Both the position numbers and the translations under genes were made by a program. From Candidatus Tenderia sp. (GTDB lineage Bacteria > Pseudomonadota > Gammaproteobacteria > Tenderiales > Tenderiaceae), in the NCBI GenBank assembly GCA_031416075.1, contig JANOSY010000034.1, forward strand, positions 1 through 17,372: a DNA stretch of 17,372 nucleotides. The letters run 5' to 3'. Numbering within the stretch: position 1 is the first letter of the stretch; every line of letters starts with the position of its first letter. This document shows positions 1 through 8,138 of the stretch, one piece after another. Below the pieces are notes generated by a model, which saw nothing but the letters and a program-made list of their open reading frames with translations, had not been told where the DNA came from and ran no database searches.

Positions 1-132
1 CATGGCATCACGGATTATGTCATTGGCTATTACAGTCAATTCAGACCCCATACCCACAATGACGGGCTGGCACCGAATGAGGCTGAGAAGCAGTATTGGA
101 TTGACTATAAAACTGTGGCCAAAAAGACTTGA
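1..132 (+). CDS. IS3-family transposase OrfB, C-terminal fragment
   Basis: Frame +1 (not in the ORF track) reads HGITDYVIGYYSQFRPHTHNDGLAPNEAEKQYWIDYKTVAKKT*, matching the IS3 OrfB tail pattern Y-I-x-x-Y-Y-x-x-x-R-P-H-x-x-x-x-G-L-x-P. Confidence 0.88.
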   Translation, partial: HGITDYVIGYYSQFRPHTHNDGLAPNEAEKQYWIDYKTVAKKT

Positions 133-140
133 CCACTACA
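1..140 (+). mobile_element. Right end of an IS3-family insertion sequence (IS911-like), truncated by the window edge
   Basis: A transposase C-terminus (1-132) overlaps a terminus ...GTGGCCAAAAAGACTTGACCACTACA that ends in CA at 140, the IS3-family 5'-TG...CA-3' end. It resembles the IS911 right end as recalled; not aligned. Confidence 0.85.
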
Positions 141-316
141 ATCCGCGACGAACACCAAGCGCACTTGGAGAAGCAGTGATGTAACGCTACATCACGTTTT
201 TAAAAACCAGCATGCCCGCAGGTGCGTGCGGACAGACTCACCCTGAAAAAGAGTATATCCGCGCAATATTGATTAAAAATCGATGTATGAATGTGATGGG
301 TTGCTGCAACGGCGAC

Positions 317-343
317 ATTCTACGATGGAAATGGGGCAGTCAA
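317..343 (-). promoter_or_regulatory. Possible sigma70-type promoter pointing leftward
   Basis: The minus strand reads TTGACT (343-338), 15 bp, TAGAAT (322-317), then GC-rich GTCGCCG. The spacer is shorter than optimal. Confidence 0.3.
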
Positions 344-419
344 TAAAAACCCGCCCATTGGCATCCATCACCATCGAAGAGATATTTTCATAACAACTCC
401 CCTGAACATCACCGGGCTC

Positions 420-482
420 GTCCAACAAACGGTTCAGATTGTGGATCGCTCCGCTCTCACAATCTAACCTTATTCGTTAGAC
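420..482. other. attC-like integron cassette recombination site (63 bp)
   Basis: GTCCAAC (420-426) fits RYYYAAC and GTTAGAC (476-482) fits GTTRRRY. The inner stem GGTT[C]AGATTGTG (431-443) pairs with CACAATCTAACC (458-469), leaving one unpaired base at 435. R-L spacers are 5 and 7 nt, with a short terminal loop. The site lies immediately after the stop codon of the 483-1265 gene. Confidence 0.82.
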
Positions 483-1265
483 CTAGGTTTGTGGCAGAAC
501 ACCAGAGGCCTCCAAGTCACGGCGAATATCCACCACTTTTTCGACAACATTTTGAGTAAAGCGCTTCTGAATAATGCCGCCGAAGTCAGAGAACATGGAC
601 GTCCCCTCCTTGAGAAGTAGCATGACGTTCCCCCGTCCGAGTCGACCACAGAACCAACCCAACTCATAGATTACATTCGGGCGAGCTTGAAGGTAGGGTT
701 CCGTTCCAGAAGTAACTTCATCATCGGGTGTAAACACGGCAATCGCGTATGAACATGCTTGGGCGTAGTGCTCGAACTTCTCTATTACGGTCTTGCATCC
801 AGCGTCAGGCTGTTGAAGTAGGACGATAGGATTAAGGCGAAACTCAGACTGGATTATGTCTTTCAACTCTCGCCATTTCGCCTCGTCGCGGCCATGGATT
901 ACAAAGATATTTTCCTTCTGACGTAACGACTCCTCAGCCTTGCGTCGAACGAGAAGTTCTGGATTGCGGCGCAAGCGCGTCAGAGAAGCGCGAACAACAC
1001 CTAGAACATTTTCTACTCCCTTAAAGGATGGCGAGCCAAGATAGCCGAATCCGTTACTGTATTCAGCCGCAATCTGTGACGAGTAGGAGTTGTGACCCAA
1101 GGCATCGTTGTATAGATCAACCAACTCTCTGGCGTATTGTCGGTAAAGAGGATCGTCTCCTTGGACAATATGGATGCCATCTCTGGTATGTCTAAAGCTA
1201 CCGAGTATCCGAGTAAGTTCCGCCTCATAGCGTTCAAATTCAGCAATGATCTGATCGGGCGTCAA
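483..1265 (-). CDS. TIR-like predicted nucleotide-binding domain protein (CAP12/Pycsar effector-type TIR) with an unassigned N-terminal domain
   Basis: The C-terminal ~140 aa carry the family motifs IFVIHGRD, TVIEKFE, AIAVFTPDD, ARPNVIYELGWFCGRLGR and SDFGG. TTG start with RBS AGGAGA at 1276-1271. Confidence 0.88.
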   Translation of the reverse strand: MTPDQIIAEFERYEAELTRILGSFRHTRDGIHIVQGDDPLYRQYARELVDLYNDALGHNSYSSQIAAEYSNGFGYLGSPSFKGVENVLGVVRASLTRLRRNPELLVRRKAEESLRQKENIFVIHGRDEAKWRELKDIIQSEFRLNPIVLLQQPDAGCKTVIEKFEHYAQACSYAIAVFTPDDEVTSGTEPYLQARPNVIYELGWFCGRLGRGNVMLLLKEGTSMFSDFGGIIQKRFTQNVVEKVVDIRRDLEASGVLPQT

Positions 1266-1477
1266 CGAGTTCTCCTAGGTCTAACATTAAATGGACCCCA
1301 ACCTGGGGCAATCAAACACCCCACTTTGGGGTATTTCCTGATCTGGAATTTATACCCTCTTCCAGAATGAATCACAAAGCAATAGTACAAACGACGTTTA
1401 AATTATTGGGTGTCATCAGGTCATGCCTTTGATAAGGACTCTTCTGTCTGGCTTGCCACCTCGACATCACTGCCCGC

Positions 1478-2338
1478 CTAAAACCAAAACTGCGCCAGCC
1501 ACACCGCCACACTACCAAACAGAAAAAATCCCGCCAGCGCGGCGAGCGCCCAGAGCCGGTAACGGCGGGTGAGTTTATGCTGTGGGTGAACCGAGAAGAT
1601 GAAGGGACGTTCACCATCAGTGGGTTTGGCGAGCAGGTGAACCTGTGGCTGCTGCGCCCGTTGCTCAAACTCTTTTTGCGCCTGAACCTCTGCCACTTTA
1701 CGCACCAGCTGCCACTCTTTTTCGTCGATCTGGCCGTCGCGGTTGCCATCAAACCGTTTCAGCAGTGCGGCTTGATCCTGCTTCCAGCTGCGAATCAGGT
1801 CGCGGGTGATGTCGGCGGCGTTGTATTGTTCTGCGGGGTTCATGGAGCGAAACTCGCCTATCACATAGAGCGGTTGCCCCAGCAGGATTAACGATTCGGT
1901 GTAGCGATAATCGCCACCCTCGCCATACCAGACCCGTTTATCTTCACCGATGACCTCGGCCCCTTCGGGATCGACCACGCAGCGGCCGGTCTTATCCTCC
2001 AGGTAGAAGAGGTTGTCGCTGATCCCTTGCCGGATGACCCGCCAGCTATCGTTATCGCCATGTGTCTGTTTCTCTTCGACTTTGAAACGCCACCAGAGGC
2101 AATACGTGGAGCTGAGCGGCGCAATAACCGGTTCGCCATCCATCAGGCGACCCATGCCCTCCAGTTCGAGATACCCTTGGTGGGCGGAGCGGACCTTGGC
2201 AGTGGCGGTATCTTCGATCAGCCGCAGGCGACGCCAGGAACGAAAGGCAAAGTAAAAGCCGACCAGCGCCAGGGAAGTCGAGGCAGCCAGTAAAAACCAA
2301 TACTGACTCTCGCCCATACCAACAGGGAAACTATCCAA
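1478..2338 (-). CDS. GIDE/BAM-like domain membrane protein with an EF-hand-like loop (LemA-associated)
   Basis: N- and C-terminal hydrophobic helices flank a soluble domain with IEDTATAKVRSAHQGYLELEG, APLSSTYCLWWRFKVE, FYLEDKTGRCVVDPEGAEV and YRYTESLI motifs. EF-hand-like DGNRDGQIDEKE. The TTG start overlaps the lemA stop. Confidence 0.75.
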   Translation of the reverse strand: MDSFPVGMGESQYWFLLAASTSLALVGFYFAFRSWRRLRLIEDTATAKVRSAHQGYLELEGMGRLMDGEPVIAPLSSTYCLWWRFKVEEKQTHGDNDSWRVIRQGISDNLFYLEDKTGRCVVDPEGAEVIGEDKRVWYGEGGDYRYTESLILLGQPLYVIGEFRSMNPAEQYNAADITRDLIRSWKQDQAALLKRFDGNRDGQIDEKEWQLVRKVAEVQAQKEFEQRAQQPQVHLLAKPTDGERPFIFSVHPQHKLTRRYRLWALAALAGFFLFGSVAVWLAQFWF

Positions 2339-2903
2339 ACAGCGCCTTTACATCAACGTCACGCTTCTCCTCATCACTGAACTCAAGCAGGTCACGCGCA
2401 GTGAAGTTGAAATGGCGCGCCAGTATGACGTCGGGAAACTGTTCAATACGGACGTTGTTGTTATTCACACTCTCGTTGTAGTACTCACGACGGTCGGCGA
2501 TGCTGTTCTCCAGCCCGGTGATACGGGTCTGGAGATGTTGAAAGGTCTGGCTCGCCTTAAGGTCGGGATAGGCCTCGGCCACGGCAAACAGGTTGCCCAA
2601 CCCTATTCGCATCTGTGTCTCTGCCGGCCCCAGCGCCGCTACGTCGCCCGCCATACGTGCCGTTGCCACTTGCGAGCGAGCCTGCATGACACGCTCCAGG
2701 GTATCCTGCTCATACTTCATATACTGTTTGCAGGTCTCTACCAGCTTGGGCAGCTCGTCGTGGCGCTGTTTGAGTAAAATATCGATGTTTGACCAAGCTT
2801 GCGAGACGTCGTGTTTCAGCCGCACCAGGTTGTTGTAGATCATGACACCGTAGACCACGACAACAACAACCAGCCCCAGAAGTATAAATATAGTCACTGC
2901 CAT
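2331..2903 (-). CDS. lemA: LemA family protein
   Basis: An N-terminal TM helix is followed by YNNLVRL...AWSNIDILLKQRHDELPKLV, AVAEAYPDLKAS, ENSIADRREYYN and QFPD motifs. Start moved to ATG 2903, which has GAGG upstream (190 aa). Confidence 0.93.
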   Translation of the reverse strand: MAVTIFILLGLVVVVVVYGVMIYNNLVRLKHDVSQAWSNIDILLKQRHDELPKLVETCKQYMKYEQDTLERVMQARSQVATARMAGDVAALGPAETQMRIGLGNLFAVAEAYPDLKASQTFQHLQTRITGLENSIADRREYYNESVNNNNVRIEQFPDVILARHFNFTARDLLEFSDEEKRDVDVKALFG

Positions 2904-3047
2904 AAACGTTGCCTCAACTGATGAAGTTTGGGTATCCCCCGTATTAATCGGGTAAACCCCGCCTATTATTAACCATTCTGTCGTCAGAGTGTTGCAGTCG
3001 TCACGCTGCGCCATCACAATAGCCGACTATTTATCCAGGAGAGCACC

Positions 3048-5520: not shown

Positions 5521-5596
5521 GGGTGGTTAGCTCAGTTGGTAGAGCATCGCCCTTACAAGGCGAGGGTCACAGGTTCGAGCCCTGTACCACCCACCA
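5521..5596 (+). tRNA. tRNA-Val (TAC)
   Basis: 76-nt cloverleaf: acceptor GGGTGGT/ACCACCC, D-arm GCTCAGTTGGTAGAGC, anticodon arm TCGCC-CTTACAA-GGCGA (TAC at 5554-5556), T-loop GTTCGAG and encoded CCA. Upstream TAGAAT (5500-5505) is followed by a GC-rich discriminator. Confidence 0.98.
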
Positions 5597-5687
5597 TATA
5601 GACCGGTAGTTCATCAGCGTGCTGTTTTGCCCCAACGCTTCCACACGCCAGATACATCAGTGTGTAATCGCGCACAAGAGCCTTCAC

Positions 5688-7200: not shown

Positions 7201-8138
7201 ATGGAACTACTTCAGGAAGCACTGCCCTCCCTTAAGATCAAAGAGGCAGCCTATACCCGTGTTGAGGCATCGGCACCGTGGGGGCTGGACTTCATCCCCT
7301 ATCACCATACAAAGTTTGGCATTGTTAGCGAAGGGGTCTGCCATATCGATCTCAAAAATGGCGAGCCACCGGTCCGGCTGGCGCGTGGCAGCTGTTACCT
7401 GTTAACACGGGGGGATGCGTTTCGGTTACGTGATGCTGCACTCAGCCACACCACGCCCTTTGAACATGCCCTGCAACATCTACAGGGGCGTCTGCTCCGC
7501 TGGGGTGGTGACGGTGACAAAACCACCATCATCGGCGGGCGGTTTGTCTTTGCCAGCAACCGCTATCCACACCTGCTTGATCTGCTGCCACCACTGATTC
7601 ATTTTACGGTGAGCGAGCAGGAACTCAGAGGACTTGTCTCGACCATCGAACTGCTCGGCAACGAGACCAGCCACCCCTCATCAGGCTCCAACATCATGGT
7701 AGACCGGCTCGCCGATCTGTTCTTCATTCAATCATTACGTGCTTACTGGCGCAGCGACGCGCAACAACAGGTGGGATGGATAGGGGCCGTTGCCGATGAA
7801 AAACTGAGCCGCACTCTGGGGCCATGCACAAACAGCCAGAGCACCCATGGACATTGGAGACATTGGCGGCCCAGGCCGGCATGTCACGGGCCGTTTTTGC
7901 CGCCCGCTTTAAAACAAAGCTGGGGATCGCCCCCATCGCCTACCTCACCCGTCACCGTCTGCAACAGGCACAGCAGCTGCTTCAACAGCCATCACAGAGC
8001 ATCGCGCAGATCTCTGCACAGGTCGGTTACAGCTCAGAGGCAGCCTTTAACAAAGCGTTCCGACGTCAGTTTGGCATGCCTCCCGGCGCATTTCGCCAGC
8101 AGTTAATCGCATCAAACCCACCGCCACAGGGGCGCTAA
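7201..8138 (+). pseudogene. AraC-family regulator (cupin + HTH), split by a 1-nt frameshift or sequencing error
   Basis: The cupin domain reads from ATG 7201 to ...GWIGAVADEKLSRTLG. The HTH (MHKQPEHPWTLETLAAQAGMSRAVFAARF...VGYSSEAAFNKAFRR) continues in another frame from 7824. One extra G in the GGGG run at 7818-7821 restores a 312-aa protein. Divergent from the SDR gene. Confidence 0.88.

Follow-up and report, generated by a model that had tools for sequence, protein, structure and literature searches.

We analysed the first 17,372 bases of a contig (C34; JANOSY010000034.1) from a metagenome-assembled genome of Candidatus Tenderia sp. (G000; 3.49 Mb in 95 contigs, 99.98% complete), and refer to this whole stretch of DNA as the window. 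Near its start the window carries a genuine single-gene integron cassette seated at a solo copy of an attI module, and the one open reading frame (ORF) of this cassette encodes a two-domain protein with a TIR-like C-terminal domain. On balance, this protein probably works as a self-contained NAD+-hydrolysing enzyme (NADase) of abortive infection that is activated through its own N-terminal domain (N-domain). The features of the locus are listed in Table 1.

The cassette is defined by both of its ends. A note made earlier from the sequence (the original prediction) had described its packing as a GTTAGAC core, 13 nt and a TTG start at one end, a stop codon abutting a 63-nt palindrome at the other and 12-bp repeats at the termini, and all of these coordinates proved right on re-reading. 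The ORF has no in-frame ATG ahead of residue 214, and its stop codon (485-483) directly abuts the attC site at 420-482. At the 5' end, similarity to the orthologous locus of a sister species (G004) stops at 1281, within the GTTAGAC core, and similarity to a homologous cassette on a Rhodoferax contig (L028) begins there, which places the cassette boundary at this core; the crossover presumably falls between G1285 and T1284. The pair at 476-487 and 1274-1285 is the only perfect inverted repeat of at least 12 nt within window positions 1-2000. About 0.1 such pairs would be expected by chance in 2 kb by our estimate, and therefore it is the position of the repeat, not the repeat by itself, that carries the argument. 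The cassette start also covaries with the box next to the stop codon in three homologous cassettes, namely those of the window, L028 and L036.

We identified the attC site with a covariance model built from eight independent canonical attC sites that were oriented by their arrays; RNAalifold gave an L-box helix with a bulged base in the 5' arm in all eight. At 15.9 bits (E 0.047), the plus strand of 420-482 is the best match of this model in the 17.4-kb window; the runner-up scores 9.2 bits, and the minus strand of 420-482 yields only a partial row of 7.1 bits. In true arrays the model scores 36-77 bits on the array strand versus 14 bits on the other. The site is unique within the genome, and its stem differs from that of the attC in L028 by compensatory changes. 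An Rfam scan of window positions 1-2000 returned three sub-threshold rows at chance level and nothing for the attI module or attC.

No protein in the genome exceeds the cut-off for an integron integrase (IntI): the best TIGR02249 score reaches 86.7 bits (cut-off 265), the level of XerC and XerD, and an IntI lying in an assembly gap is possible in a metagenome-assembled genome with a contig that starts in a repeat. The attC match and this score bear out the prediction of an integron cassette without a neighbouring integrase. Because the genome holds no intact IntI, the locus is of the SALIN type, with one cassette and no integrase.

Table 1. Features of the cassette locus at the start of the window
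Feature	Position	Strand	Remarks
3' end of transposase gene, read as IS3-like	1..140	+	repeat where the assembly breaks; the contig begins here
Stretch past attC	141..419		no ORF of note; two terminator-like hairpins
attC	420..482	+	63-nt imperfect palindrome with RYYYAAC/GTTRRRY boxes; top strand according to the covariance model, inverted relative to ORF and attI
Perfect 12-bp inverted repeat, left arm	476..487		R box plus 5 nt; right arm at 1274-1285
Cassette ORF, two-domain TIR-like protein	483..1265	-	260 aa plus stop codon; TTG start
CAP12/Pycsar-type TIR domain	555..911	-	residues 119-237; PF10137 E 2.6e-35, 121.4 bits (cut-off 24.7)
N-terminal domain	912..1265	-	residues 1-118; four-helix bundle plus small beta hairpin (AlphaFold 2 model, pLDDT 91.9)
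Leader	1266..1278	-	13 nt; Shine-Dalgarno AGGAG at 1276-1272, 6 nt before TTG
Cassette 5' boundary core GTTAGAC	1279..1285	-	13 nt, then TTG; also the end of the attI module
attI module with putative cassette promoter	1279..1386	-	~105 bp; TTGTGA (1377-1372), 17-nt spacer, TATAAAT (1354-1348)

The attI module carries two CCCCAnnnTGGGG motifs (1331-1319 and 1308-1296) and is not confined to this locus. Copies with 80-95% identity occur on contigs C12 (~5560-5667), C15 (1479-1583), C64 (~7390-7496) and C66 (35225-35326), which makes at least five with that of the window, and weaker matches occur on C36, C17 and C80. All aligned copies share a TTGTnA block, 17 variable bases and TATAAAT, then the two motifs, whose variants are freely combined, and finally an end in GTT(A/G)G. 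An ORF starts 10-35 nt downstream of every aligned copy, and in each case it is a different ORF or a short cassette array; the copy on C64 is followed by at least three ORFs with attC sites between them and that on C66 by one ORF and an attC. Beyond this genome, the module was found in three of the four other genomes of the genus and in two of eight genomes of a second genus of the family. Because in one of the former (G003, locus L018) the module sits between a divergent IntI gene (298-1314, minus strand; TIGR02249 483 bits versus the cut-off of 265) and a cassette array with canonical attC sites, positions 1279-1386 of the window are the attI region of the chromosomal integron of the genus. 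Judging by its conservation across the module copies, which is the evidence we have for it, a cassette promoter is most likely included in the module.

The orthologous locus in G004 (L016) dates this arrangement. A stretch of that genome with the LemA and GIDE genes and the module is 80-84% identical to window positions 1281-3019; its similarity ends at the junction of attI and cassette, beyond which G004 has a different ORF of 214 aa. When we searched the other four genomes of the genus with the TIR-like protein, there was no close match, the one hit being a 30%-identical TIR-domain match in G001. Because the similarity to G004 ends at 1281 and the TIR gene is without a close match in the genus, the solo module is older than both species and its cassette content has changed since. 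Such turnover at an orthologous locus is what integrase-mediated exchange predicts, and we propose that the scattered modules were loaded with different cassettes by an integrase that has since been lost from this genome or was not assembled. To our knowledge, solo attI copies fall outside the usual classification into integrons, CALINs and In0 elements. Copies of an attI-promoter module that are scattered over a chromosome and hold different cassettes in sister species are a new point, and one of integron biology that can be tested.

Several further observations concern these modules and the integrons around them. The module of the window is flanked by a LemA-family gene and a gene for a GIDE/EF-hand membrane protein (1478-3017, minus strand); this pair is kept at the G004 locus, where a REP-like (repetitive extragenic palindromic) insertion and a duplicated gene end lie between the pair and the module. 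Behind the copy on C15, an ORF of 164 aa (L006:958-1452, minus strand) encodes a Tae4-type protein, i.e. a type VI amidase effector (PF14113, E 7.6e-23), and it is followed by a small membrane-protein-like ORF and then by REP-type palindromes in place of an attC. Past a truncated third attC behind the C64 copy (L009, from C64 ~9390 onward), the sequence resembles, by eye, the 5' end of an attC-targeting group II intron. A 39-residue N-terminal remnant of an IntI lies at C26:1199-1315 beside a different attI, with cassettes (C26:1-1190) that run to the start of the contig; remnant and cassettes together are a second, decayed integron. A candidate on C82 was rejected as an integron integrase on reading, its gene being frameshifted and located beside an IS91-type transposase gene.

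The attC hairpin proposed for the cassette is a real site at 420-482, but the original picture of it needed correction, as the model scores the plus strand, which is antisense to the ORF. The ORF and the attI module thus lie on the minus strand and the attC match on the plus strand. Behind other attI copies of the genus (L009, L017 and L018) attC lies on the strand of the module, and in eight homologue loci it lies on the strand of the TIR gene. The Rhodoferax contig repeats the inversion: its attC, which is the best match in 83 kb (18.6 bits), is on the strand opposite the TIR gene. Excision by normal attI x attC recombination should not work here, and the cassette is probably locked in place, because its attC is inverted relative to attI and to the gene. 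The description of the locus as a mobile unit is therefore doubtful, with no intact IntI in the genome and an attC of inverted polarity. A cassette with its gene antisense to its attC may have been inserted twice in a non-canonical orientation; alternatively, the block may have moved as a whole. An attC that is inverted relative to attI in two unrelated integrons is a second new point, and it is an arrangement that standard bottom-strand recombination should not yield.

The attC family itself is very abundant in sediment metagenomes. The summed contig depth of the bin at window positions 401-480 is 2296, 6991 and 1323 in three data sets (X1, X2 and X3, respectively), versus 6-45 in neighbouring single-copy bins. 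In the metagenome contigs conservation is confined to ~412-479; both flanks diverge, and the neighbours are many and varied. On the low-coordinate side, several of these neighbours share a short conserved block that, taken as its reverse complement, looks like the start of an ORF (ATG-GAA-ATA-TCT), and the window's counterpart of that ORF ends after seven codons. DNA of the genome is present in freshwater-sediment sequencing runs, and there is no RNA run among the 21 runs listed as carrying DNA of the window.

Homologues of the TIR-like protein are likewise carried as cassettes. We found 705 relatives, and the best 120 of them, from which our figures on length, identity and source are taken, are proteins of 246-313 aa from many phyla that share 71-93% identity with the query along 94-100% of its length; Gallionella, Methylobacter, Desulfobacterales, Geobacteraceae, Azohydromonas and Acidobacteria are among the named sources. 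Against four homologues the proportion of nonsynonymous differences (pN) is 0.11-0.15 versus a synonymous proportion (pS) of 0.79-0.82, which is saturated; the family is under strong purifying selection, because pN is low while synonymous sites are saturated. A library of 50% representatives yields 10,117 matching clusters, the majority of which match through the TIR domain and have other N-termini.

An attC survey of homologue neighbourhoods, suggested together with the original prediction, covered 25 of 32 loci from named genomes, with L051, L054 and L055 left out for broken frames and L053, L056, L057 and L058 for partial matches. Of the 25 loci, 14 have a GTTRRRY box no more than 45 nt upstream of the start, versus 9 of 268 control ORFs. 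The covariance model finds an attC right after the stop codon, on the strand of the gene, in seven loci (four of these seven sites being among the training sequences of the model), and L028 adds one on the opposite strand. One locus (L040, from a Nitrospiraceae metagenome-assembled genome) is a complete integron with an IntI of 462 bits and the TIR gene as its second cassette, and in L028 the same cassette, with a protein 81% identical to ours, is the first cassette beside an IntI remnant and attI. These results indicate that the homologues are single-gene cassettes in many genomes. Three home-made attC detectors were also tried; they were crude and disagreed with one another (4, 3 and 4 of the 25 loci; 1, 0 and 0 of the 268 controls; L028, L031, L033, L037, L038, L040, L043 and L048 in union) and were superseded by the covariance model.

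On a plasmid of Nitrosococcus halophilus (NC_013958.1), a full-length homologue that is 70.9% identical lies between annotated restriction endonuclease and HNH endonuclease genes; it has attC-like palindromes on both sides by eye, and the attC model is weak there (13 bits or less). More distant homologues, annotated as 'nucleotide-binding protein', appear in 1142 plasmid records (in the records listed, residues 46-232 align at 33% identity), with 616 from Klebsiella and 363 from Escherichia and about half on conjugative plasmids. A TIR-like gene of 31% identity occurs in three E. coli phages.

At the protein level, the two-domain layout originally described stands. The C-terminal TIR-like domain is placed in PF10137, of which the cassette ORF is the only gene in the genome, and the Glu of its NVIYELG motif is E201 (codon 665-663), which we take to be the catalytic residue. 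In phmmer alignments E201 falls on the Glu of the same motif in two Cap12 chains (7un8 and 9lmq), and of the 43 rows with a residue in its column, 39 have Glu. The AlphaFold model of the full protein has a pLDDT of 91.1, and its top Foldseek matches are the TIR-STING structures 9lmq and 7un8 (E 3.6e-6). A homodimer prediction from two copies scored 0.40 against a mark of 0.42 and was not used either way.

The N-terminal ~115 residues, for which no family could be assigned at the outset, indeed match no Pfam family, and the domain has no STING, SAVED or cyclic nucleotide monophosphate (cNMP)-binding signature. A Foldseek search with its model returned nothing at E<=1e-3, and the best VIA-align match (Z 10.2) was to generic helical bundles, for which a Z of this size is too low to be meaningful. 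A look-up of the N-domain in a structure atlas was uninformative, the best score of 0.87 belonging to a cluster that is most likely the protein's own family. The domain travels almost only with this TIR: in a region search 4 of 120 relatives lacked PF10137, and all four were short. The idea of a freely swapped module is accordingly weak, given that only 2 of 150 listed representatives have another C-terminus. One of these (P0193) joins the N-domain to a membrane-spanning coiled-coil tail and the other (P0260) to a kinase N-lobe; other relatives have an N-terminal extension.

The window has no STING or cyclase among its 19 large ORFs (Pfam scan, to which the statements on window ORFs below also refer), and the cassette has no room for one, as the original prediction said. 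This extends to the genome, in which there is no SMODS/CD-NTase (PF18144) at 99.98% completeness. As a candidate one-gene system the protein is not new, because its family is apparently already listed in PADLOC as the single-gene system PDC-S35: each of the five PDC-S35 models gives a match (E 1.2e-38 to 3.8e-25, best PDLC05005), aligning from residue 81 or later and having no curated cut-off. Judged by these matches, the protein family is not new; a defence reading is plausible and coincides with an existing candidate label. According to the available text of Payne et al. 2024 (10.1101/2024.01.29.577857), PDC systems were nominated for members embedded in BREX, DISARM or type I restriction-modification (RM) loci and were added to PADLOC untested. 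The term PDC-S35 was not found in the literature searched, a search that did not extend to supplements.

These observations make a self-contained NADase of abortive infection the reading that we favour, and we infer its NADase activity, its defence role, its trigger and the function of its N-domain. The protein would idle in an inactive form until an infection-linked cue acted on the N-domain; the TIR domains would thereupon form an active oligomer, in the manner of TIR-STING, NAD+ would be hydrolysed, and the infected cell would cease to support phage growth. Neither a second gene nor a cyclic-nucleotide signal would be needed. We conjecture that the N-domain could serve in sensing or in oligomerisation. 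A recent preprint (bioRxiv 10.64898/2026.04.30.722052), in its accessible portion, describes the CAP12/Pycsar TIRs as NADases active on oligomerisation, places PF10137 TIRs exclusively within the CAP12/Pycsar effector clade and mentions their catalytic Glu without a residue number. A systematic TIR survey set standalone TIR proteins aside, according to the part of its text that is accessible (bioRxiv 10.64898/2025.12.03.692087).

Several results weigh against this reading. No defence genes neighbour the cassette among the 19 large ORFs of the window, and none of the seven ORFs behind other attI copies (six in this genome, one in G004) matches PADLOC. The PADLOC match to the protein covers residues 81-256 only, with the N-domain outside it, and PDC-S35 is one of 145 predicted, untested candidates as given in the accessible text of its source (10.1101/2024.01.29.577857). 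The modelled fold of the N-domain is generic, with no evidence of a site for binding a ligand or a phage protein. Concerning the cassette, the attC-model score is weak (E 0.047) and on the strand opposite the gene, and a consensus promoter scan did not call the TTGTGA-17-TATAAAT block.

If the enzyme is a toxic NADase, its target might still be something other than phage, for example if it served as an addiction or stabilisation module of a cassette array or as a weapon against plasmids or other mobile genetic elements; we regard this as unlikely, while giving it more credence than the other alternatives. Chromosomal integrons hold toxin-antitoxin cassettes, often inverted, and the cassette gene is similarly antisense to its attC. 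The Tae4-type amidase toxin behind another attI copy and the many distant homologues on enterobacterial plasmids (the 1142 records) fit such a role as well. However, the cassette has no antitoxin-sized partner ORF, the protein has no secretion or delivery domain in a Pfam scan, and PDC-S35 was nominated for its embedding in BREX, DISARM and type I RM loci.

It is quite unlikely that the cassette is a stranded relic, with an ORF that is intact but silent and functionless in its host and is kept since the cassette cannot be excised. The lack of an intact IntI, the inversion of attC relative to attI, the insertion sequence (IS) 280 bp away and the failure of the consensus scan to call a promoter are all compatible with a relic. 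Nevertheless, the full-length ORF is preceded by a good Shine-Dalgarno sequence and retains every conserved TIR residue, and the closest relatives are 93% identical, which points to recent acquisition or continuing selection. In addition, every copy of the module keeps -35/-10-like blocks while the spacer between them varies, a pattern that speaks for a functional promoter.

Very unlikely, in our judgement, is a TIR-like domain that is not a cell-killing effector but produces a nucleotide- or NAD-derived signal or processes nucleosides. Some bacterial TIRs make signals rather than deplete NAD+, as the available text of one preprint states (bioRxiv 10.64898/2025.12.03.692087), and the nucleoside 2'-deoxyribosyl-hydrolases RCL/DNPH1 are among our lower-ranked Foldseek matches. 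A signal would need a receiver gene, however, and none travels with the cassette; PF10137 TIRs, moreover, occur only in the CAP12/Pycsar effector clade in the portion of the other preprint that is available (bioRxiv 10.64898/2026.04.30.722052).

The least likely alternative is an effector of CBASS- or Pycsar-like signalling whose cyclase lies elsewhere and whose N-domain binds the cyclic nucleotide: every solved relative identified by sequence is activated by a signal (two Cap12 TIR-STING, one PycTIR) and the PADLOC models for PycTIR and CBASS TIR effectors match the TIR part (E 1e-16 to 4e-11, behind PDC-S35), but the genome has no SMODS/CD-NTase, its only PF00211 (class-III cyclase) protein, encoded on another contig (C31), is a CHASE2 membrane signalling protein of 744 aa, the NCBIfam Cap12 equivalogs score 49 and 41 bits where the cut-off is 450, the N-domain is a helical bundle without STING, SAVED or cNMP-binding signature, and the homologues are bounded by attC as one-gene cassettes.

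A broader form of the favoured reading, that of an NADase activated through its own N-domain, is possible but doubtful, and we offer it tentatively. The four-helix-bundle domain (~115 aa) might be a new, self-sufficient infection sensor that switches a CAP12-type TIR NADase without a nucleotide second messenger, and that in rare relatives sits on a membrane-spanning tail or a kinase-like domain. The resulting one-protein module might be spread by integrons and land on 'satellite' attI-promoter modules that are served in trans by one integrase, and a top-strand (inverted) insertion might both put the reverse gene under the cassette promoter and lock the cassette in place.

If the protein does work alone, it would rank with the smallest TIR immune proteins that carry a sensor of their own, and it would provide a direct way to study how CAP12-type TIRs can be switched on in the absence of cyclic nucleotides. 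Otherwise, the locus is a further example of an established theme, that of integron cassettes with candidate phage-defence genes. Such cassettes are reportedly the subject of work by Kieffer, Darracq and Getz, all of 2025. They are also cited as established in the accessible part of a 2026 preprint (10.64898/2026.03.17.712381).

The other large ORFs of the window are housekeeping or transport genes, with hemB, adk, pfk, ppa, dapF and xerC among them. On the low-coordinate side, the contig ends in a repeated IS 280 bp beyond attC; positions 1-140 match four other contigs (C78, C16, C73 and C33) at 99-100% identity, and we read them as the end of an IS3-like transposase gene, a Pfam scan of window ORFs having given no match there. 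Beyond attC, the window shares with the Rhodoferax locus only ~14 nt and a 13-nt island, and the stretch at 141-419 may be the remnant of a further cassette that was cut by the IS.

Compared with described systems, the protein is closest to PDC-S35, with which it shares a single gene of ~260 aa and a C-terminal TIR of the PF10137 type; the match nevertheless covers residues 81-256 only, so that membership is putative and the four-helix N-domain lies outside the match. Cap12, the TIR-STING of CBASS (SfSTING, PDB 7UN8; 9LMQ), shares the TIR fold and the NV-x-x-E-x-G motif, and as a filament-activated NADase it is the model for the proposed action. In contrast to Cap12, where the TIR is N-terminal, the TIR here is C-terminal and is accompanied by neither a STING domain nor a CD-NTase. 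PycTIR of Pycsar (PDB 8JSJ) has a C-terminal TIR of the same Pfam family behind a sensor domain, as here, but no cNMP-binding domain could be recognised in the cassette protein from its weak fold matches and there is no adjacent cyclase; similarity to PycTIR is also low (E 0.0033 for the solved chain; 40.8 bits for the PADLOC model). As an element, the locus resembles SALINs, CALINs and their defence cassettes in having one coding sequence and one attC with no integrase nearby, a SALIN being a single attC site that lacks an integron integrase in the available text of Loot et al. (10.1101/2022.09.11.507474). It differs from SALIN insertions at genomic attG sites in that this cassette sits at a recognisable copy of attI, with its attC inverted relative to that attI.

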